64,000 bases of DNA, taken from IMG/VR virus record IMGVR_UViG_3300028048_000113, positions 24,561 through 88,560 of that record, one strand, 5' to 3'. A program made the position numbers and the translations under genes. The stretch comes from a virus. Taxonomy: Duplodnaviria > Caudoviricetes. Position 1 is the stretch's first letter. Every line of letters begins with the position of its first letter. Of this stretch, positions 40,175 to 63,243 are shown piece after piece. The notes under the pieces were generated by a model. The model did no database searches. It had not been told where the DNA came from and saw only the letters and a program-made list of their open reading frames with translations.

Positions 40175-42112
40175 ATGGATTTGATGCAGAAAAATAGGGA
40201 CATGCTATTGGCAGGTCGCTATAACATTCAAGACACACGACAATTGTCAAAAATTGCCAGTCTTAAAAATCCAAATGATTATGACTTATATCTAATTGCT
40301 TGTGCTTTATGTAATTATGATATACCTGAAAAAGCTGAAGCTAGAGATCTACGAATGCAGCTTTTTATAAAAACTAATAATTCAGGAATTGATTACAGTC
40401 ATGATGATTCGGATTATGGAAAAATAGAAACCAAACTTAAATGTACCAATACAGGTAAGACGAATAAGTATGGTTTGTATGAATATGAAGTCAACGTAAA
40501 TGACAGAGATTTGGTAGCAGACCTTTGGGAATACAAAACGAAGGATTGCTTAAAGTATGTTGACAATAGATCATTTTCAGATAAGATTATTATTTCAATC
40601 GGAAAAACTCAATTGGAAAATTTCAAGGCTATGTTAAAGAAACTTGGCATTGCTTATGAAAATAAGGACATAAATGAAGGCATTATTTATACAAATAAAT
40701 CAACTCATAAGTTGATTGATATAAATACTCTAAACCTTCCTTTCACTCCTTATGACTTCCAAATTGAGGACGCTGAAAAGATACTTAAAACAAAGAGAGC
40801 ACTTCTTGGACATGAAATGGGTTGTGGTAAAACTCTTATCTCAATCCTTGTCGGTGAAAGCATAAAGATGCCTAAACTAGTTATTTGTCCTGAGTCTCTT
40901 AGATTAAATTGGGAAAAAGAAATCAGACAAGCAAGAGCAGATGCAGATGTTCAGATTCTTTATAGTAATGAGTCACCTCATTTTGGTAAAGATTGGACTA
41001 TCGTAGGTTATTTGACAGCAAGTAAGTTTTTACCTAACTTGAAATCATTCAAATGTATATTTGTTGATGAATGTCAGAACTGTAAAGCAGTAAATAACTG
41101 GGGAAAGCCAACAAGTAAAAGAGCAAATTCTGTAATTGATTTGGCTCAATCTGCTGAGTATTGTTATCTTTTATCCGGTACTCCACTTCCTTCTCATAAC
41201 AGAGACTTATTTAATATTCTCAAAATGTTAAAGTGTGAAAAGTTTGATTTTAATAATCAATGGGCATTCAAGCATTTTGCTGATAAGTTCTGTGATCCTA
41301 AGGAAACTCATTGGGGTAAAGATTATTCAGGTAATAGTAATTCTGAGGAACTTCATAAGGTACTCAGTGCTCTTATGACAAGAAGACTTAAGAAAGATGT
41401 ATTACCTAACCTAACAAAGCAACGTCAGTTTATTCCTATTGCACCTAAGTTTAAGAAAGACTACAAGGATATTGAAAAGAGATTATTTACACCTCAAGAT
41501 GGTGATACATATATGGCTCTTGCAATGACAGGTAGACAATTACTTAGTCAATATAAGTTAGATACTGCAATTGAATTAGCAGAGACTCTTTTGAATGCTG
41601 ATGAGAGTGTAGTTATTGTTACTAACTTTGTTGAAACAGCTGATAAGCTTATGGAACACTTTGGAGATCAGGCATGTGCTATTAGAGGTGGCATGACTGA
41701 TAAACAAAAAGAAAAGGCAAAAGAAGAATTCCAAAATAAAGAGAAAACAGTATGTGTATTAAATATGCAGGCTGGTGGTGTAGGTCATACCTTAACTGCC
41801 GCTCATGCAATGATTATAATTGATTATGCATGGATCCCATCTGAAATGATCCAGGTAGAGGACAGAATCTGTAGAACAGGTCAAGATGAACATTGTATGA
41901 TCTATTATGTATATTGTGTTAATGCTATATTTGATAATCTTTTTATTGATATGATTAGTAATAAGTCTGCAAATATTGATTTGGTCGTAGATAATGCTCA
42001 AAATACATTTGACTTAAGTTATGAAAAAGATAACTCTAAGACATTTATTGAAAATCTCAAGGAGTATATCAAGAATAACTCAACTGTCAAAAAGAAGCAA
42101 AAGACCATTTAA
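40175..42112 (+). CDS. SWI2/SNF2-family helicase/translocase
   Basis: HEMGCGKT, VICP, FVDECQ, LSGTP, RRLKKDV, GGVGHTL, QVEDRICRTGQ. Confidence 0.88.
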   Translation: MDLMQKNRDMLLAGRYNIQDTRQLSKIASLKNPNDYDLYLIACALCNYDIPEKAEARDLRMQLFIKTNNSGIDYSHDDSDYGKIETKLKCTNTGKTNKYGLYEYEVNVNDRDLVADLWEYKTKDCLKYVDNRSFSDKIIISIGKTQLENFKAMLKKLGIAYENKDINEGIIYTNKSTHKLIDINTLNLPFTPYDFQIEDAEKILKTKRALLGHEMGCGKTLISILVGESIKMPKLVICPESLRLNWEKEIRQARADADVQILYSNESPHFGKDWTIVGYLTASKFLPNLKSFKCIFVDECQNCKAVNNWGKPTSKRANSVIDLAQSAEYCYLLSGTPLPSHNRDLFNILKMLKCEKFDFNNQWAFKHFADKFCDPKETHWGKDYSGNSNSEELHKVLSALMTRRLKKDVLPNLTKQRQFIPIAPKFKKDYKDIEKRLFTPQDGDTYMALAMTGRQLLSQYKLDTAIELAETLLNADESVVIVTNFVETADKLMEHFGDQACAIRGGMTDKQKEKAKEEFQNKEKTVCVLNMQAGGVGHTLTAAHAMIIIDYAWIPSEMIQVEDRICRTGQDEHCMIYYVYCVNAIFDNLFIDMISNKSANIDLVVDNAQNTFDLSYEKDNSKTFIENLKEYIKNNSTVKKKQKTI

Positions 42113-43202: not shown

Positions 43203-44510
43203 ATGAAAAGACTATTAAGAATTTTAGCTGTAATTGCTGTTGTCTTAGGTGTGTTATACATGTGTGGCTATAACCTCACATCTATAAAACATTCATGGGA
43301 AATTCAGGCTCCTGAGAAAGTTTTTAGTCCTTTAAAAGAAGCAATCCCTTCTGCAGTACAGAATCTTGGAACTCCAAATGATAATAACACTGATCCAACT
43401 ATTGTCACAGGAACAGATGATGTTAATTGGACTATTCCAACAAACAATGATCCTTTATTTAATCCCAGTAAAAATACTGATGAAACAATTAGTATTGCAA
43501 CTAGTGAACAAAATGGTGGATCTGGTAATGGTGGATCCGGTAGTATTGGTGCAAGTAATGAAATCAATATTACTAATAAGAATGGTGGAACTGGTGAAAC
43601 TGAGAAACTTGATGTTACATTGTCTAGAGACATCACAGTTAATATCAATGGTAAAGAAGTAAATCTTAAGACACAAACCTCTATTTCATTTGTTAAATGG
43701 TTAGCAAATAATTATAAAGATGGTAGTGATGTTAGTTACTATGATAAGGATGGAAATCCTATTGGAGAAACAACAACCACTGAGACAATAGAGGCAACCA
43801 CAGAAACATCAGAAACTACAGAAACCTCAGTAACTGAAACTACAAAGGAAACTCCTTCAGTCAATCCTAAATTGATTGATGATGTACAAGTTAGTTATGA
43901 TGATCAGCTTTCTGATTATGCACATCTTGTAGTATTAATTGCAGATATTGAAGTAGTTGATGAATTACCAGATTATAACACTTTACCTAAATATAATAGA
44001 GATACTTTTGAAAAGCCAGTAAAGAGTTATATTTTAGGCGGACTTAAGATAAATAGAAATAATTATTCTTGGCGTACAAGTCCTTTCTTTAATCAGAAAG
44101 ATTTTACTTTTACTTGTCCTTATACTGGAAAAGTAATTACTGACACAGATGATAAGAAACAAGACAATGACTTTGGTACTCTTGATTATGACCATATTGT
44201 ACCTCTCAAATCAGCATATATTAGAGGTGCTAGTGAATGGTCAAAGGATAAGCAAAATGAATATGCTTATGACCAGTGGGTTGGTGTAGATGTTCTCAAC
44301 TCAGCAAATAGAAGTAAAGCTGATAAAGGACCTCTTGAATACTTACCTGAAAAGAATATTGAAGACTATTGCTATTCTTGGTTACTTATTTGTAGTAAGT
44401 ATGATTTAAAGATGACACAAGCAGAGATTGATCTTTGTAAGAAATATATCGAGAATGCTCTTAATAGTGGTGAACCTGTAACTCACTTAGGTGGACACTA
44501 TGATGGCTAA
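43203..44510 (+). CDS. Exported/anchored protein with C-terminal DUF1524-type HNH nuclease
   Basis: Signal/TM helix, Thr/Glu-rich linker, CPYTG, YDHIVPL, GASEW, NSANRSKAD, YCYSW. Confidence 0.72.
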   Translation: MKRLLRILAVIAVVLGVLYMCGYNLTSIKHSWEIQAPEKVFSPLKEAIPSAVQNLGTPNDNNTDPTIVTGTDDVNWTIPTNNDPLFNPSKNTDETISIATSEQNGGSGNGGSGSIGASNEINITNKNGGTGETEKLDVTLSRDITVNINGKEVNLKTQTSISFVKWLANNYKDGSDVSYYDKDGNPIGETTTTETIEATTETSETTETSVTETTKETPSVNPKLIDDVQVSYDDQLSDYAHLVVLIADIEVVDELPDYNTLPKYNRDTFEKPVKSYILGGLKINRNNYSWRTSPFFNQKDFTFTCPYTGKVITDTDDKKQDNDFGTLDYDHIVPLKSAYIRGASEWSKDKQNEYAYDQWVGVDVLNSANRSKADKGPLEYLPEKNIEDYCYSWLLICSKYDLKMTQAEIDLCKKYIENALNSGEPVTHLGGHYDG

Positions 44511-44590: not shown

Positions 44591-44743
44591 ATGCAAGGAA
44601 GAAAGCCAACGAGATATGAATGGCCTATACTTGAAGCAAACAACCTTAACACAAAAGAATGGCTAGTGCAGAAGAATGCTAATGATTATATGCAATTAGT
44701 CAACAAGAAAACTAAAAAAGAAATAATAATAAATAAGGAATAG
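44591..44743 (+). CDS. 50-aa small phage protein (not in ORF track)
   Basis: MQGRKPTRYE...EWLVQK; RBS AAAGGAG; behind promoter 44530-44558. Confidence 0.55.
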   Translation: MQGRKPTRYEWPILEANNLNTKEWLVQKNANDYMQLVNKKTKKEIIINKE

Positions 44744-44789: not shown

Positions 44790-46112
44790 ATGAACATTAT
44801 TTTAAGTGGTCCAGATGCATGCGGAAAGACAACTCTCGGTGAAAAACTTAAGGCAAAGTATAACATGCCTATTATTCATTCCACAGCAACTACAAGAAAT
44901 ACGTTAGAGTATCATTTGGATTTGATTGACTATCATGATAATACTATCTTTGATAGATTTTCAGTCGGTGAAATGATTTTTCCTAAGATTTATGGAAGAC
45001 CTGCAATGCTTACTGAGGAAGAGTTTTTTAAGACTCTTAGAAGAGTAGAAGACAATAATGACATGTATATTATCTTTACATGTTCAGATGTTGAAATTCT
45101 TAAGCAGAGATTGATTGAACGTGGTGAGGAAGATTACCTTGCTGAAATCGTACAGCAATGTGAGTTATACAATGAAGTAGCTATGAAGATGGCTAACTTC
45201 TTTGGTAATTATAAGAATTTTTATGCTATTGACATTGCAGAACCTCATGCATATGACAGACTTGATAAATGGATTGATGAACATTATGGAAAGATTACAC
45301 CTAATGTAGCATACAAGAAATTAGCAAATGACCTTTTGGATTATGGACATCCTATTCCTTCTAGTAACCCTCGTGGTACTACAAAGGAACTTACTGATTA
45401 TTCATTCACTATTGATGATTTGGATGTCAATGAATGCATTACACTTAAGTCAGGCGGTACAAATCTCACTTATGTAGCAGCAGAGATTCTTTGGTACTGG
45501 TCATCTAGAAATGATCTTGCTTTTATTAACAAGTTCTCATCTTTCTGGAATAAGGTAACTGATGATGGTGTAACTGCCAACTCAGCTTATGGTTATATTC
45601 TTCAGCAAAAGCATGGTTTTAACCAGATTGAGAAGATCATTGAATTGTTACAGAAGGATCCTTTTTCAAGAAGAGCAGTTCTTAACATCAATGTACCTAA
45701 TGAAAAGGTTATTGAGACTCATGATGAAATGTGTACAATTTGTTTAAACTATCAGATTAGAGATGGTGTTCTTGATTGTAACTGTGTAATGAGATCTAAT
45801 GACTTTAACTTTGGTCTTAGAAATGACATTGCATACTTCATCTATCTCCAGAAGTACATTGCAGATAGACTTGGAGTTGGTTATGGTAAGTACACACATT
45901 ATGCATTCTCAATGCATATGTATGACAGAGACTTTAAGTTCTGTAAGAAGGTTGCTTATGGTGACATGGAAACATCAGATGAAAGACTTGATGTAAGAAA
46001 GCTTATTGACAATAAGGATACTCTTATTGACTGGATTGATAATAAATTTACATCAAAGGAAGACTTTACTCAGATGCTTAAGGATATGAATATCATTTAT
46101 CCAGCAAAGTAA
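44790..46112 (+). CDS. Fusion: dNMP kinase + dCMP hydroxymethylase (thymidylate synthase fold)
   Basis: N-part GPDACGKTT and FDRF (NMP kinase). C-part DEMCT..QIRDG..MRSNDFNFGLRND has Asp at the pyrimidine-specificity position, as in T4 gp42. Confidence 0.8.
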   Translation: MNIILSGPDACGKTTLGEKLKAKYNMPIIHSTATTRNTLEYHLDLIDYHDNTIFDRFSVGEMIFPKIYGRPAMLTEEEFFKTLRRVEDNNDMYIIFTCSDVEILKQRLIERGEEDYLAEIVQQCELYNEVAMKMANFFGNYKNFYAIDIAEPHAYDRLDKWIDEHYGKITPNVAYKKLANDLLDYGHPIPSSNPRGTTKELTDYSFTIDDLDVNECITLKSGGTNLTYVAAEILWYWSSRNDLAFINKFSSFWNKVTDDGVTANSAYGYILQQKHGFNQIEKIIELLQKDPFSRRAVLNINVPNEKVIETHDEMCTICLNYQIRDGVLDCNCVMRSNDFNFGLRNDIAYFIYLQKYIADRLGVGYGKYTHYAFSMHMYDRDFKFCKKVAYGDMETSDERLDVRKLIDNKDTLIDWIDNKFTSKEDFTQMLKDMNIIYPAK

Positions 46113-51211: not shown

Positions 51212-51332
51212 TTTACTTTATCAGAATAACAAATATAATAAAAATATCTGGTCCTTTATTGGATCAGATATTTGTGTGATTTACGAGAGTCTATTTAATT
51301 ATATAAGTGCCCTATAGAAAGGAGATATATAC

Positions 51333-52094
51333 ATGTCAAAAGGTTATGTCTATATTATGACGACAGCCGTTGAAGGCATAATTAAGATTGGACGATCTGA
51401 TAATTGGACTAGACGATGTCAAGATCAATTAGAAGCAAATGGTTATAAAAATATGAATGGTCTAAAAACTTATTTTGTTGTACAAGTAAGTGACCAAGAA
51501 GAAATTGAATCTATAATGCATGACATTTTTAGAGAATCTAGAGTATCTAATTTTGAAATGTTTGCAGTAGATAAAGATAGAGCAAAAAGAGTTCTTTCTA
51601 AAATGGGAACTCAAGTATTTCCAGAAATAGAAATTAAACAACCTAAAAAGGTTGAAAAGACTGATGAGTCAAAAATGACTTTGCAGGATTATTATAAATT
51701 ATTTTGGAAAGATTTTAATGCTGTATTAGTATTCAATAATGCTCCATATAAACCAAGAAGTGAAGATCAAAATTTTAGACTTTACTTTAATTTTGGATCT
51801 AATTACAGTATCAATTTAATACCTAAAGAAAATGTTATAAAATTTAAGTTCTTTACTGATGAAATTTCATATAATAAAATGATGTCCAATAAAGAAACTA
51901 TAGAAAAAGAATTAGGTAGACCTATATACTTTAAGGCTGAAATTGGTGCTGTTTCTAAAAAGATGCAATATGAATGTGATACACTTATTGAAAATTTTGA
52001 TATAACTAATTATGATAAACAAGTTGTAACTGAGACTTTAGATGTTGCATTAAAATTTAAAGATATATTAAATAATTATTTGAAAGGAATTTAA
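51333..52094 (+). CDS. T5orf172/GIY-YIG-like domain plus DUF4268-like C-domain
   Basis: GYVYIM..IKIGRS..R..E..MH..F..E.F; C-part FWKDF...KETIEKELG. Confidence 0.6.
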   Translation: MSKGYVYIMTTAVEGIIKIGRSDNWTRRCQDQLEANGYKNMNGLKTYFVVQVSDQEEIESIMHDIFRESRVSNFEMFAVDKDRAKRVLSKMGTQVFPEIEIKQPKKVEKTDESKMTLQDYYKLFWKDFNAVLVFNNAPYKPRSEDQNFRLYFNFGSNYSINLIPKENVIKFKFFTDEISYNKMMSNKETIEKELGRPIYFKAEIGAVSKKMQYECDTLIENFDITNYDKQVVTETLDVALKFKDILNNYLKGI

Positions 52095-52099
52095 TTAAA

Positions 52100-53131
52100 A
52101 TGATTGATTCAAAGTATTATGATATTAAAGAAAAAATAGAAGAGTCAGATTTTTGGACAAATAAACTTTATAATATGGCTTATGAAAGAGTAAAGGATAG
52201 ACAATATCCTCTTGTTATTCCTTCATATAATAGACCAGATAATAAAATGACGAAATATATCTATGAACATACTATTGATGAGGAACCTTGGGATATTTAT
52301 GTAGTTGTTAGAGCTTCTCAGAAAGAAATATATGAGCAGGCAGAATATTTTAAGAAATGTAATGGTAAGATTAAACTTCTTCCTTTTCCTGATGAAACCA
52401 TTAATGATTTAGGTAAAGTTAGAGTAGAAACAATTAAATATTTTTCAGGTAAGAAAGATTGTATCTTCATGATTGATGATGATACACTTGATATAACATA
52501 TACAGTACCTTATACAAGAAAATCTGGTGCTCAGATTTCAATGTCAGTTACTGATAAATTTATTGGTCATAATACTAATTTTGCTAGAATTTTAGCAATG
52601 TGGCAGGTTGCTATGGAGGAAACTCTTAAAAAGCATGATAATGTTATTATTTCCTGTCCTATGATTGCTGGGTTTAGTTGGGCTCCTAATTTCTGTGATC
52701 CTGAAAATAGTTTAAAGATAATGAGTGGTGCTCAGGCTTGTTGTATGTGTATTAATATAAAAGCATGTAATAAGTATGACATTACTTTTAGAACTAATAA
52801 GGGTAATGGTCATGAAGATAAAGACTTTGTAATTAGAGCAATTCAAAAAGGCTGTATGACAGCTGAGTATAGATGGCTTGCTTATTATTCAGATGGTCTT
52901 GGTACTGATTTCTTAAATAGTGGGATAGCTGAAAGAATGGCTAAGCAACATGATGAAATGTATGCTAATTTTAAAGATGTTGATTATGTTAAGTTTATTA
53001 TTGATAGAAAAGGTCTTAAAAATGTAAGAGTCAATTGGAGTAGAGCAACTAAGTTTTATAATAACTTAACTGGTGAAAACATTAATAAGACAAATAATAA
53101 ATTTAACTTAGCGGAGATATTAGGACTATGA
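52100..53131 (+). CDS. GT-A glycosyltransferase, T-even glucosyl-hmC glucosyltransferase-like
   Basis: VIPSYNR, VVVR, IFMIDDDT (DxD), HEDKDF. Confidence 0.72.
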   Translation: MIDSKYYDIKEKIEESDFWTNKLYNMAYERVKDRQYPLVIPSYNRPDNKMTKYIYEHTIDEEPWDIYVVVRASQKEIYEQAEYFKKCNGKIKLLPFPDETINDLGKVRVETIKYFSGKKDCIFMIDDDTLDITYTVPYTRKSGAQISMSVTDKFIGHNTNFARILAMWQVAMEETLKKHDNVIISCPMIAGFSWAPNFCDPENSLKIMSGAQACCMCINIKACNKYDITFRTNKGNGHEDKDFVIRAIQKGCMTAEYRWLAYYSDGLGTDFLNSGIAERMAKQHDEMYANFKDVDYVKFIIDRKGLKNVRVNWSRATKFYNNLTGENINKTNNKFNLAEILGL

Positions 53132-54237
53132 AAGCAATAGGAATGCATATATTCTGTGGAAGTCAGACAATCGGACATTTACTTGAAGGTTGGAAGATAG
53201 ACACAGTACTTGAAATTTCAGAGGATATGCCTAATCAAAATGCATATCATTTCATTAAGAATTATCCTAAGATTCAGGTAAAAAAACCTTCTGAGTATGA
53301 GGATAATGAAGCATATCTTGACAAACTTAAATCAGAGAATTATGATCTTTTATATTCAAATCCTCCCTGTTCTGGTTTGTCTCAGATAAATAGAAACGCT
53401 AGTGCTGATTGTGCAATAAATGGTAATATCTATAAAGTAATCAACATGGTAAAGAGAATAGAGCCTAAGACATTCTTGATAGAAAATGCTCCTACTCTTA
53501 CTACAACTGGTTTGCCTATTCTTAAGGATCTAGTAAAACAGTTACCTAATTATTATGTAACAATAATCAATGACTATGCTAGAAATCATAATGTTCCTAT
53601 GAATAGACGTAGAACAATGGTTGTAGGATTCTGTAAAAATAATTTTACAAAGATGCCTCAGATACACCAACATGCAGTTGAGACTGATCTTAAGACAGTT
53701 CTTGCTGGAGTTGATTATACATACAATAAAGAATATATTAAGGAAACTGATAAAGATTTGTTTAAGTATTACAAGTATGTAAAGCAAGGCAATGATCTTT
53801 ATGATGCACTTGTTGACAATGATGTAATCATAAACAAAGCAGTTGAGAAGATTAAGTATAATAGAGAGCATAATCTCAGAAGCTGGAATAAGTCACCTTG
53901 GAGACCTGATAAATTAGCACCTTCAATGACCTCTCTTACTAGAATTATTCACCCCACAGAGGATAGAGATTTTTATATTAGAGAGTATGCAGCTCTTATG
54001 GGTTATCCAAATGACTTTGTTTTCTATACAGATGGTCAAACACCTATTGTGCAGTGTATAGCTCAAGGTGTTCCTGTTAATTTTATTAGATATATTTCTA
54101 GTGAAATTAAGAATTCTTTTAAGACAAAGGATTTTGTTGATTGTGAGGTTCTGTATATTAATCAGTGTAATCCTGATAGTATAAAGACTAAAGAATATAC
54201 AAGAGAGTCATTTGATGGAACTGAAAAGATTATATAA
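53128..54237 (+). CDS. Divergent C5 cytosine DNA methyltransferase-like protein
   Basis: Motif IV NPPCSG, motif VI IENAP, motif VIII PMNRRR, C-terminal REYAALMGYP..F and AQGVP; motif I degenerate (FCGSQ). Confidence 0.78.
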   Translation: MKAIGMHIFCGSQTIGHLLEGWKIDTVLEISEDMPNQNAYHFIKNYPKIQVKKPSEYEDNEAYLDKLKSENYDLLYSNPPCSGLSQINRNASADCAINGNIYKVINMVKRIEPKTFLIENAPTLTTTGLPILKDLVKQLPNYYVTIINDYARNHNVPMNRRRTMVVGFCKNNFTKMPQIHQHAVETDLKTVLAGVDYTYNKEYIKETDKDLFKYYKYVKQGNDLYDALVDNDVIINKAVEKIKYNREHNLRSWNKSPWRPDKLAPSMTSLTRIIHPTEDRDFYIREYAALMGYPNDFVFYTDGQTPIVQCIAQGVPVNFIRYISSEIKNSFKTKDFVDCEVLYINQCNPDSIKTKEYTRESFDGTEKII

Positions 54238-61030: not shown

Positions 61031-61813
61031 ATGATTAAATTTTTATTACAAAAGAATGACATAGAAAGTGAAGATGAATATATTATTGTTAAAAACATTT
61101 TAGACAATAATAATCTTTACTATGAAGAAATAACTCAAGATGAGTTATCATCTTATTGTGATAAGAAATATATTCCAATTGGTAATATTGAATTTGTTAG
61201 AGAAGCAATTCAAATAATGTATCAACCAGATTTTATTGAACAACCAATTGAGATACCTACATATCTTCAAACTCCAGAATTTCTAAAGAGAACCTATAAG
61301 ATATGTAAGTGGAATGAAATTCCTAGAAAAGGTAAATGGTTCATTAAAGATGCATCTAAAATGAAATATTTTAGAGTATATGCTGATACTGAATTCATTA
61401 TAGATGATGAAATATTTGATTATCAGCCTAAATTTAGTTATGATAACTCAATAAGTTTACCAAAATCTGATGATTATATTGTTAGCTCTCCATATAGAAT
61501 TGACTCAGAATATAGAATTTATGTCATTGATAGTAAAATAGTAAACTCAGAATTCTATTTAGGCACTAGTGATGTAAAACCAGATATGGCTTTAATAGAG
61601 AAAGCAGTTGAGTTAATAAACACTAATGAAAAATGGTTAAAATCATATTCATTAGATGTTATGGTTGGAGAATTAGGAACAGCTATTATTGAAATACATA
61701 ACTTTTCTGCTATTGGATTGTATAATAGGAAATTTGATAAAGAAATATTAACTACATATACTCAAGGAATTGAGTATTACTTAAATGATAATAGAATAAA
61801 ATATAAGGAGTAA
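61031..61813 (+). CDS. ATP-grasp domain protein (DUF4343/R2K-like)
   Basis: PIGNIEFV, WFIKD..K, SEYRIYVIDSKIV, YSLDV, IIEIHNF.AIGLY. Confidence 0.68.
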   Translation: MIKFLLQKNDIESEDEYIIVKNILDNNNLYYEEITQDELSSYCDKKYIPIGNIEFVREAIQIMYQPDFIEQPIEIPTYLQTPEFLKRTYKICKWNEIPRKGKWFIKDASKMKYFRVYADTEFIIDDEIFDYQPKFSYDNSISLPKSDDYIVSSPYRIDSEYRIYVIDSKIVNSEFYLGTSDVKPDMALIEKAVELINTNEKWLKSYSLDVMVGELGTAIIEIHNFSAIGLYNRKFDKEILTTYTQGIEYYLNDNRIKYKE

Positions 61814-61818
61814 TAATA

Positions 61819-63243
61819 ATGATAAGACCACTTTTAGGAGGAGGCTGTAGTGAATGTAAGGCTACAGATGATAGAGTAGGCAAAGGACGATGCAAGCATA
61901 TTTTGTGTCAGAGTTCTAGTAATGCTTTAAATACTCTTAATATCATTCAAGAAAGTGGTGGAGAAGCTTATCTTGTTGGTGGTTGTGTTAGAGATATGGT
62001 TCTTAATCAAAAACCTCATGATGAAGATATTACCACTTCTTTAACTCCAGATCAAGTTATTAGTTTATTTGAAAGTAAAGGATATGAAGTAATTCCTACA
62101 GGATTACAACATGGAACAGTAACTGTCATGATGGACGGTGAAGGATATGAAATTACTACATTCAGAAAAGATGGTGATTATTCTGATGGCAGACATCCTG
62201 ATTCTGTTGAGTTTAGTACAAATGTAGAAGATGACTGTAGTAGAAGAGACTTTACTTTTAATGCTATGTATTATGATGGTAAACAAATCGTAGATACTTA
62301 TAATGGTCAGAAAGACATTGAGGATAAGGTAATTAGAACTGTTGGAGATCCTGATGAAAGATTTAATGAGGATGCTCTTAGAATGATGAGAGCAGTTAGA
62401 TTTAGTTCTAAATTAGGATTTACAATAGCTCCAGAAGTTACTGCTTCTATTAGTAAAAATAAGGATCTAATTCATAATGTTTCTGCTGAAAGAATTCAAG
62501 CTGAGATGACAAAAATGCTTCAAGGTCCTAATAAGAGATATGCATTACAAACAATGCAACAAACAGGCTTAATGAAAGAAGTAATGCCTGAGCTTGATGC
62601 TCTTAAATCAGTAAAACAGAAGAGTAAATATCATTATGAAGATGCATTTGAACATACAATGTCTGTTATGGACAATTGTCCTGATGATGTTCAAGTTCAG
62701 TATGCAGCAATGTTTCATGATTTAGGAAAAGGAACTACCAAACAAGTAGATCCTGATGGAACTGAACATTTTAAAGGTCATTCTACAGATTCAGCAAAAC
62801 AAGCTGATGAAATTTGTAGAAGATTAAAAATGTCTACTGCAGATAGAGAAACTATTGTTAAATTAGTTAAGTATCATGACAGACCAGATGATGCTGAGAT
62901 GAAGAATGTCAGAAAATCAGCTGCTAAGTTTGTATATGAACATCAAGACTTAACTGACGATGAATATAAGAAATTAGAGCAATTATGGATAGCTGATAGA
63001 AAGGCTCATAAGGATCCTAATACTGAATCTTTGAATAATTATATTAAGGAACTTGATGGAGTATTAGCTGGACCACATAGAATAAGTGATTTATCTGTTA
63101 AAGGTAATGATTTATTAGCATTAGGTTATAAAGGACCTCAAATTGGTAAGGCACAGAAATACTTATTAAAGCAATCTCTTACTAATAATACAAATGATAA
63201 GGATAAGTTAATTAAATTATTAAATGGTTTTAAAGGAGAATAA
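61819..63243 (+). CDS. cca: CCA-adding tRNA nucleotidyltransferase with HD domain
   Basis: YLVGGCVRD, DEDITT, GTVTV, RRDFTFNAM, EDALRMMRAVRF, ERIQAE, FHDLGK. Confidence 0.9.
   Translation: MIRPLLGGGCSECKATDDRVGKGRCKHILCQSSSNALNTLNIIQESGGEAYLVGGCVRDMVLNQKPHDEDITTSLTPDQVISLFESKGYEVIPTGLQHGTVTVMMDGEGYEITTFRKDGDYSDGRHPDSVEFSTNVEDDCSRRDFTFNAMYYDGKQIVDTYNGQKDIEDKVIRTVGDPDERFNEDALRMMRAVRFSSKLGFTIAPEVTASISKNKDLIHNVSAERIQAEMTKMLQGPNKRYALQTMQQTGLMKEVMPELDALKSVKQKSKYHYEDAFEHTMSVMDNCPDDVQVQYAAMFHDLGKGTTKQVDPDGTEHFKGHSTDSAKQADEICRRLKMSTADRETIVKLVKYHDRPDDAEMKNVRKSAAKFVYEHQDLTDDEYKKLEQLWIADRKAHKDPNTESLNNYIKELDGVLAGPHRISDLSVKGNDLLALGYKGPQIGKAQKYLLKQSLTNNTNDKDKLIKLLNGFKGE

Follow-up and report, generated by a model that had tools for sequence, protein, structure and literature searches.

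A conserved clade of cytosine-C5-methyltransferase-like proteins as a candidate fourth component of phage glycosyl-hydroxymethylcytosine pathways

The last 64 kb of the 88.5 kb record IMGVR_UViG_3300028048_000113 of a large uncultivated phage (IMG/VR; about 37% complete by CheckV), a stretch of 64,000 nucleotides hereafter called the window, encode a protein of the cytosine-C5-methyltransferase (C5-MTase) family together with enzymes of a 5-hydroxymethylcytosine (hmC) pathway. The methyltransferase-like (MT-like) gene (positions 53128–54237, + strand; 369 aa) follows the gene of a DNA glycosyltransferase (GT; 52100–53131, +; 343 aa), and both are located downstream of a gene for a dNMP kinase::dCMP hydroxymethylase fusion (44790–46112, +). 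Our main finding is that the MT-like clade is inherited together with hydroxymethylase genes, and that its cofactor pocket appears to be rewritten in a way that is conserved throughout the family. A first-pass annotation of the window had pointed out that a C5-MTase-like gene beside an hmC pathway needs explaining. The co-occurrence is real and evolutionarily conserved, and no explanation for it was found in the literature searched. Specifically, we found no description of this clade or of any C5-MTase tied to hydroxymethylase pathways; a GT-survey preprint mentions methyltransferases near GT/ThyS clusters in passing only (bioRxiv 10.1101/2023.12.21.572611).

The association is seen well beyond the window. 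Our locus set contains 37 distinct MT-like genes, and 18 of these loci have at least 5 kb of sequence on both sides. A hydroxymethylase gene is present in 11 of the 18 loci and an hmC-type GT gene in 13. Every searchable record that is at least 54% complete has a hydroxymethylase, including Bacillus phage G and two complete relatives of the window phage with terminal repeats, G004 (= L012) and G005 (= L014); whole-record searches, from which the contigs behind L047, L051, L054 and L055 were left out, added G002 and phage G. The gene order kinase-hydroxymethylase, GT, MT-like recurs with three unrelated GT families: TAGT (the window, the 532 kb scaffold L004, and L030), T4 AGT-like (L007/L031 and L016) and T4 BGT-like (L010/L011 and L034–L038). 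A sugar nucleotidyltransferase gene is found directly upstream in L004, L028 and L032. The GT family also changes between syntenic sister phages, G004 having a TAGT and G005 a T4 beta-GT-like enzyme in the same slot, which in these two genomes has a free-standing kinase gene on one side and the hydroxymethylase gene on the other. The ATGA overlap of the GT and MT-like genes, noticed in the first-pass annotation, is confirmed in the window: stop and start share positions 53128–53131 (+), where the sequence reads ...GGACTATGAAAGC.... The same junction is zero-gap or overlapping in L007, L010, L011 and L016 as well. Identities of MT-like proteins and hydroxymethylases co-vary (Spearman 0.50; Mantel 1/2000 permutations). 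In the sister clade, gene P0196 is located between a kinase::UDG-like fusion (UDG, uracil-DNA glycosylase) and a dCMP deaminase gene together with a hydroxymethylase-type thymidylate synthase (TS) homolog.

Some further observations were made at these loci. The dNMP kinase::UDG-superfamily fusion (PF03167) is encoded by phage G gp315 (L001:629-1624, − strand; 48 bits) and by L058:7015-8001, taking the place of the kinase::hydroxymethylase in both; in L058 the fusion gene and the MT-like gene overlap, stop on start. In one subgroup, a gene for an HU-family DNA-binding protein (PF00216, 100 bits; L012:11211-11489) lies directly downstream of the MT-like gene, with equivalents in L008, L014 and L017. 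The MT-like genes of L010 (10001–11185) and L011 (IMGVR_UViG_3300021255_003535 and 3300039431_000778) contain four in-frame stops; because all four fall at Trp positions of the family, these phages use genetic code 4, in which TGA stands for Trp; this points to Mollicutes-type hosts.

Sequence comparison places the MT-like proteins in a discrete, phage-only clade. In a profile search of 1.84 billion representative sequences, full-length members scored at least 264 bits and the next full-length proteins about 120 bits. Among the genomes of 185,579 species only four loci were found, three on contigs of 132–136 kb from metagenome-assembled genomes, which is a phage-genome size, and one on a 17 kb contig, likewise from a metagenome-assembled genome. 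The closest annotated relative is gp301 of Bacillus phage G (43.5% identity), while the next phage match is at 24.6%. Three nearest outgroups were recognized: canonical methylases (LFxGxGG, PPCQGFS, ENV, GNAVP), a sister group with IGAGS/NPPCGGLS/AQGIP, and a non-canonical group lacking the motif II Glu. Members of the third group (P0169, P0173, P0179, P0180, P0188 and P0264) have PLIGGxxxG for motif I, PC(S/A)GLS, ENAPG and QNVP; in its locus L061 the gene belongs to the replication region of a phage, not far from a gene for dCMP deaminase, with an HU gene directly upstream.

Regarding the hydroxymethylase, the first-pass annotation had spoken of a dCMP hydroxymethylase and had pointed to 44790, and an enzyme of this type is indeed encoded there. 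The open reading frame (ORF) matches Pfam Thymidylat_synt with 81 bits and has weak P-loop kinase matches, so that it represents a kinase::TS-fold fusion; the best PDB relatives of its TS-fold domain are the CMP hydroxymethylase MilA (2e-26) and the dCMP hydroxymethylase of T4 (2.6e-12). In TS homologs Asp at ThyA position N177 is diagnostic of cytosine, an acidic residue at L143 of hydroxymethyl over methyl, and the D169N change of 5-hydroxy-dCMP synthase (PMC13326640). The motifs DEMCT and MRSND..GLRND place Asp at the positions of L143 and N177 and keep Asp169, along with the catalytic Cys, and by these residues the protein is of the cytosine-specific 5hm-dCMP synthase type. A dCMP methylase or a plain thymidylate synthase is ruled out by Asp at the N177 and L143 positions. 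We also rejected a 5-hydroxycytosine pathway of the RB69 gp48 type: the residue at the D169 position is Asp, not Asn, in the homologs of the window, L004, L010, L013, L058 and phage G.

The GT had been read as an enzyme of the T2/T6 glucosyl-hmC type, and the profile searches agree. The protein belongs to the TAGT family (presumably GT-A-like), matching PF20691 with 40 bits at the protein level and 41.4 bits in the genome search (cut-off 27.5), and it matches PHROG 842 (phrog_842, 'beta-glucosyl-HMC-alpha-glucosyltransferase') with an E value of 2e-10. The strings quoted in the first-pass annotation are found in its translation within VIPSYNR, YVVVRAS and FMIDDDT, the last being a DxD-type acidic motif. 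No match was obtained by tblastn against 50,697 phage records at 1e-5 or by a sequence search of the PDB. TAGTs of the T6 type put a second glucose on alpha-glucosyl-hmC and have no TET partner (PMC13390438). The window TAGT probably glycosylates hmC directly, since it is the sole TAGT, AGT or BGT match in the 88.5 kb record, G004 (100% complete) has a TAGT and neither AGT nor BGT (both models matched their positive controls), and L017 encodes TAGT::hydroxymethylase as one polypeptide of 616 aa.

Taken as a T4-like pre-replicative glycosyl-hydroxymethylcytosine pathway, the locus is well supported, and the phage most likely replaces cytosine in its DNA by sugar-bearing hydroxymethylcytosine. 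The kinase::hydroxymethylase would make 5hm-dCMP and then 5hm-dCDP, the polymerase would bring hmC into DNA, and the TAGT would then glycosylate hmC on DNA. The T-even phages have the dCMP hydroxymethylase gp42, the dNMP kinase gp1 and the dCTPase gp56 (T4 names) along with alpha- and beta-glucosyltransferases; the beta-glucosyl-HMC-alpha-glucosyltransferase of T2/T6 is a TAGT member. In common with them, the window encodes a cytosine-specific TS homolog with the residues of a hydroxymethylase, a dNMP kinase and a DNA GT whose family is also used by T6; moreover, T4 AGT-like or BGT-like GTs fill this slot in relatives, and complete relatives have a dUTPase-family gene beside the hydroxymethylase. 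Unlike in the T-even phages, kinase and hydroxymethylase are fused, the TAGT is apparently the primary and only GT and not a second-sugar enzyme, and the operon contains a conserved C5-MTase-like gene that has no T-even counterpart.

A C5-MTase-family gene adjoining a TAGT-type GT and glycosyl-hmC as the end product are also known from phage C5-MTase/TET/GT systems (PMC8256090). The MT-like protein might thus be the methylase of such a post-replicative system (Burke et al. 2021), active or relic, with TET encoded in the 63% of the genome that is unsequenced. TAGT is defined by its association with TET, the adjacency of C5-MTase and GT genes is typical of those clusters (PMC8256090), and the record is far from complete. 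We consider this very improbable all the same. In contrast to the TET systems, hmC of the window comes from a nucleotide-level hydroxymethylase and no TET was found; therefore a methylase is not needed to supply the substrate of the GT. Every record that could be searched encodes a hydroxymethylase bearing the complete 5hm-dCMP signature, and the TAGT::hydroxymethylase fusion links TAGT to the pre-replicative route. Tet_JBP (PF12851) had no match in the record, two complete relatives or phage G, a result that is weak alone, as no control genome matched either. In a survey of 25,000 contigs only six had both ThyS and 5mYOX (bioRxiv 10.1101/2023.12.21.572611). Finally, active methyltransferase partners of TET are described as conventional methylases, and the other C5-MTase clades of the TET study are partly inactive with disrupted motifs VIII–X (PMC8256090), which is not the case in the MT-like clade.

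The first-pass annotation had described the MT-like gene as Dcm-like with catalytic PC, ENxP and RxR retained, and these motifs are confirmed. The protein matches PF00145 with 98.8 bits (cut-off 22) and NCBIfam TIGR00675 dcm with 60.9 bits, below the cut-off of 100.65, and it contains NPPCSGLS, IENAPT and NRRRT. The AlphaFold2 (AF2) model (42 homologs) has a pLDDT (predicted local distance difference test) of 94.2. Residues 1–335 of the model align with HaeIII, 3g7u, HhaI, DNMT1 and CmoX at Z 25.7–27.7 (VIA-align). Specifically, Z is 27.7 for HaeIII 1dct (root-mean-square deviation 3.1, 278 aligned residues) and for 3g7u (2.5, 283 aligned), 26.5 for HhaI and 25.7 for CmoX 8yf3. On the model, the protein has the two-domain C5-MTase fold, small domain included. 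No domain fusions were found among longer proteins with the MT-like domain, which is weak evidence.

These data bear on the question whether the protein acts on DNA at all. It could serve as a base-flipping or targeting subunit of the GT, or as an RNA (tRNA) m5C methyltransferase; translational coupling to GTs and the CCA-adding enzyme encoded downstream are in line with such roles. Both are quite unlikely. Members of the clade are found with GTs of three structurally unrelated families, which replace one another between sister phages, and this speaks against a dedicated GT subunit. Invariant catalytic Cys, Glu and Arg argue for catalysis, and the best structural matches are DNA enzymes, Dnmt2 being lower (Z 21–22).

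The cofactor side of the protein differs from canonical C5-MTases. In motif I, H7-I-F9-C-G11-S12 stands opposite F-x-G-x-G-G, so that the first Gly is Phe and the third is Ser. This register is based on the agreement of the AF2 model (strand 2–6, helix from residue 12), the starts of the structural alignments (HaeIII residue 1, HhaI residue 12, CmoX residue 19) and hhalign with canonical phage C5-MTases (probability 99.9). The first-pass annotation had seen FCGSQ in place of FxGxG. Motif I is indeed non-canonical, but the proposed register was off by two and the deviation is wider than motif I; FCGSQ is not the equivalent of FxGxG. Using HhaI numbering for comparison, F18 corresponds to H7 (mostly Y in the family, variable), G20 to F9 (invariant in the near family), W41 to I30 (M or I in the family) and D60 to S55 (mostly S). 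The counterparts of G22 (G11), G23 (S12), E40 (E29), Q82 (S82), V121 (A121), N304 (Q313) and S305 (G314) are all invariant. Motif X consequently reads A312-Q313-G314-V315 as against the canonical Gly-Asn-(Ala/Ser)-Val.

Conservation was counted in 119 family sequences. E29, N78, P80, C81, S82, E119, N120, A121, R160, R162, Q313, G314, V315 and P316 are invariant among them, and F9, G11 and S12 in all 117 sequences aligned at these positions. The catalytic PC (P80-C81), EN (E119-N120, with Val changed to Ala after it) and RxR (R160/R162) are kept in 119/119. In the small domain, W253, D254, K255, S256, S266, S269 and H275 are invariant or nearly so family-wide. Among 24 clade representatives, clustered at 50% identity, F9 is found in 20, G-S in 23, PCS in all 24 and Q313 in 23. 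This pattern indicates a rewritten pocket under purifying selection and not decay. The first-pass view that the AdoMet (S-adenosylmethionine) motif is broken has to be abandoned: the pocket rewrite is conserved clade-wide and the ribose-binding Glu, E29, is invariant. A pseudogene or broken methylase was rejected on the same grounds (intact ORF, pLDDT 94, residues invariant across the family).

The apparatus for cytosine flipping, attack on C6 and N3 protonation is intact, and judging from these residues the substrate is therefore a cytosine-type base and catalysis is retained. The Glu of CmoX that corresponds to HhaI E40, E47, is a ribose-diol ligand (PMC12783734), and invariance of E29 points to a functional site for a cofactor or ligand in the MT-like protein. 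Three paired swaps could preserve contacts in the pocket: W41 to M/I with G20 to F, S305 to G with G23 to S, and Q82 to S with N304 to Q. We read them as a shift of the aromatic W41 to position 9, a shift of Ser305 to position 12, and replacement of the Q82/N304 pair by S/Q. In HhaI, Q82 and N304 are close together beside the transferable group, and the Q82A mutant is slower in methyl transfer (PMC3526304). In summary of the comparison with M.HhaI, M.HaeIII and Dcm, the MT-like protein shares their fold and small domain, Pro-Cys, the motif VI Glu-Asn, the motif VIII Arg-x-Arg, motif IX and the motif II Glu. It differs in motif I (Y/H-x-F-x-G-S in the clade) and in the changes at Q82, V121, D60, W41, N304 and S305; moreover, the MT-like gene has no restriction partner, and its clade is confined to phages, where it is located beside genes for hmC synthesis.

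A change at the HhaI N304 position is also found in the DNA cytosine C5-carboxymethyltransferase CmoX (8yf3; PMC12783734), another phage protein of C5-MTase fold encoded in a hypermodification cluster; its function was altered through this substitution. An MT-like enzyme that depends on carboxy-S-adenosylmethionine (Cx-SAM) and transfers a carboxymethyl group, or one that uses a host-made AdoMet analogue, would fit this likeness and the close structural match to 8yf3. However, CmoX has SPPC, Arg350 and the partners CmoA and CmoY, whereas the MT-like clade has NPPC, Gln (Gln313) and the partners hydroxymethylase and GTs. CmoA (TIGR00740) had no match in the record, G002, G004, G005 or phage G, with positive controls, and the loci showed no ligase of the CmoY type. 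Identity with CmoX was rejected, as the SPPC/R350 residues and CmoA are absent, and there is very little chance that the enzyme uses such a donor.

The first-pass annotation had also suggested a possible link between methylation and CpG depletion. Over the whole 88.5 kb record, CpG observed/expected is 0.14, CpA/TpG 1.19 and GpC 1.08; CpG depletion of this degree is comparable to that of vertebrate genomes. Among carriers of the gene, CpG observed/expected ranges from 0.11 to 1.14, and TpG/CpA excess is found in some and not in others. Depletion thus does not track the gene, and CpG specificity of the MT-like enzyme was dropped as a candidate. Because of this range and the missing TpG/CpA excess in some carriers, CpG depletion is probably a host or lineage signature and not a footprint of the enzyme.

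What, then, is the task of the MT-like enzyme? The likeliest single mechanism, to which we assign a probability of about 0.4, is AdoMet-dependent capping of cytosines that are not hmC; we infer AdoMet use, substrate and role from sequence and gene context. The MT-like gene would be a conserved fourth component of glycosyl-hmC pathways. Acting after replication, alongside the GT, as an AdoMet-dependent cytosine-C5 transferase, the enzyme would put a methyl group on cytosines that escaped hmC through residual dCTP incorporation or through early-round or repair synthesis. The outcome would be a C5 substituent on every cytosine of packaged DNA.

Several points weigh against capping. A T4-like purge of the nucleotide pool would leave little unmodified cytosine, and a dUTPase-family gene does flank the hydroxymethylase in the complete genomes G004 and G005. 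To our knowledge, T-even phages do without any C5-MTase, and we know of no tie between ordinary orphan C5-MTases and hmC pathways. The strict linkage of the clade and its sister clade to hydroxymethylases is easier to explain if hmC matters to the enzyme. Both residues that would gate the transferable group (Q82 and N304) are changed; in CmoX it is Arg at the N304 position that defines a non-methyl donor (PMC12783734). In addition, Asp of motif III has been lost, and the equivalent of F18 is variable.

The enzyme might instead act on hmC in DNA, with Cys81 attacking C6. Its pocket would hold the 5-substituent or bind a non-methyl co-substrate. The hydroxyl could then be replaced by another nucleophile, hmC could lose its hydroxymethyl group and the resulting C be re-alkylated to 5mC or with another group, or a different hmC-derived hypermodification could arise at sites left bare by the GT. 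This is possible, although less probable than capping. The clade and its sister clade are strictly linked to cytosine-specific hydroxymethylase genes, and the MT-like gene is translationally coupled to whichever hmC-GT is present. Residues near the target base or the transferable group are smaller or changed in 119/119 sequences (Q82 to S, V121 to A, S305 to G, N304 to Q), and pocket-lining glycines are replaced by F and S. Even ordinary C5-MTases react covalently with 5hmC DNA and strip it of the hydroxymethyl group (PMC11347137), and in CmoX a change at N304 is able to switch the transferred group. On the other hand, the invariant ribose-ligand Glu and the apparently compensatory swaps fit plain AdoMet binding, no alternative-donor gene was found (no CmoA and no other conserved enzyme in the operon), and glycosylation by the GT next door would be in competition for this hydroxyl. 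Nor do we know of any natural enzyme of this kind.

Immediately upstream of the GT, with 5 nt in between, is a gene of the T5orf172/MUG113 type (GIY-YIG-related; 51333–52094, +; PF10544 and PF13455, about 31 bits each), which probably shares one transcription unit with the GT. A 435-aa ORF upstream of the hydroxymethylase (43203–44510, +), whose ortholog in L004 (30% identity) is placed likewise, shows sub-threshold GmrSD_C/HNH similarity (GmrSD_C E 0.019, below the cut-off; atlas 0.82–0.89, a lead only). It may be a phage nuclease that tells modified from unmodified DNA. Such nuclease-like neighbours would suit an MT-like enzyme that targets unmodified cytosine of the host, phage glycosyl-hmC DNA being immune. 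The enzyme would methylate host DNA, trap itself on it, or deaminate C to U if AdoMet is weakly bound, leading to host shut-off or to marking of host DNA for phage nucleases. C5-MTases starved of AdoMet are known to deaminate cytosine. Action on host DNA would account for the finding that the gene is always accompanied by an hmC/GT pathway that protects the phage itself, and conservation of the small domain is in keeping with a single broad target, not with a variety of restriction-site specificities. Nevertheless, we regard it as rather unlikely. The hints of nucleases are sub-threshold, and most related loci lack them; a cofactor-less deaminase needs no invariant ribose-binding Glu; and co-transcription with a late-acting GT would be unexpected for an early shut-off gene.

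The remaining features of the region can be described briefly. GC content is about 0.31 and nearly all genes are on the + strand; an ENA contig of 125.9 kb (L002) bears the same genes as the window. A terminator-like hairpin (51242–51273, +; 13-bp stem followed by a T-rich tail, a consensus match only) precedes the unit of T5orf172, GT and MT-like genes. Terminator-like hairpins number three in the neighbourhood as against 0.6 expected, again by consensus match only, and a promoter scan of the region gave a site count no higher than in shuffled sequence. The upstream edge of the block syntenic with L004 is marked by an SNF2-family helicase gene (40175–42112, +; SNF2-rel_dom 72.7 bits, Helicase_C 56 bits), whose ortholog in L004 is 68% identical. 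A 50-aa DUF6906 ORF (44591–44743, +; PF21847 annotation in L002 and L004) has an ortholog in L004 (49% identity) that sits directly after the MT-like gene. For a 448-aa unannotated neighbour, neither the atlas nor permissive Pfam searches gave a match. At 61031–63243, the annotation of L002 shows a gene for an R2K-domain (ATP-grasp-like) protein and, after it, one for a CCA-adding tRNA nucleotidyltransferase that has an HD domain.

The clade has a cultured representative. Phage G gp301, annotated as 'DNA cytosine methyltransferase', belongs to the same clade and is encoded about 13 kb from a hydroxymethylase-type TS homolog (L062:1420-2466; JN638751 ~233.4–234.5 kb). With DVPCT and MRSND..GTPYD, this homolog shows the 5hm-dCMP synthase signature in full. 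Its surroundings contain a dCMP deaminase gene, two AGT-like GT genes, 4–10 kb from gp301, and a glucose-1-phosphate thymidylyltransferase gene, and the kinase::UDG-like fusion is also in the gp301 neighbourhood. The phage G cluster differs from the window in being looser, in having AGT-type GTs and in the kinase, whose fusion partner is a UDG-superfamily domain in place of the hydroxymethylase. From these sequences we predict that phage G DNA contains glucosyl-hmC; no report of glucosyl-hmC was found in the literature on phage G DNA modification.

A broader claim, which we put forward tentatively and consider somewhat doubtful, is that the clade represents a new DNA-level cytosine-C5 enzyme that needs the hmC pathway. 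It would convert hmC to an undescribed modification, turn hmC into 5mC via Cys81, or, after replication, give residual cytosine a one-carbon group from a donor other than the methyl of AdoMet. If this is true, glycosyl-hmC would be accompanied by a further, hidden modification of cytosine in phages that range from Bacillus phage G to gut megaphages of 500 kb.

Phages with hmC are the textbook case of complete base replacement, in which a cytosine-C5 methyltransferase should have no task. With the MT-like clade, a one-off oddity becomes a defined family with a cultured model, gp301 of Bacillus phage G. If the enzyme methylates leftover cytosine, pre-replicative replacement would be leakier than assumed and would have a post-replicative backup. 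Action on hmC, or use of another donor, would be new DNA chemistry and a possible tool for labelling or converting 5hmC.

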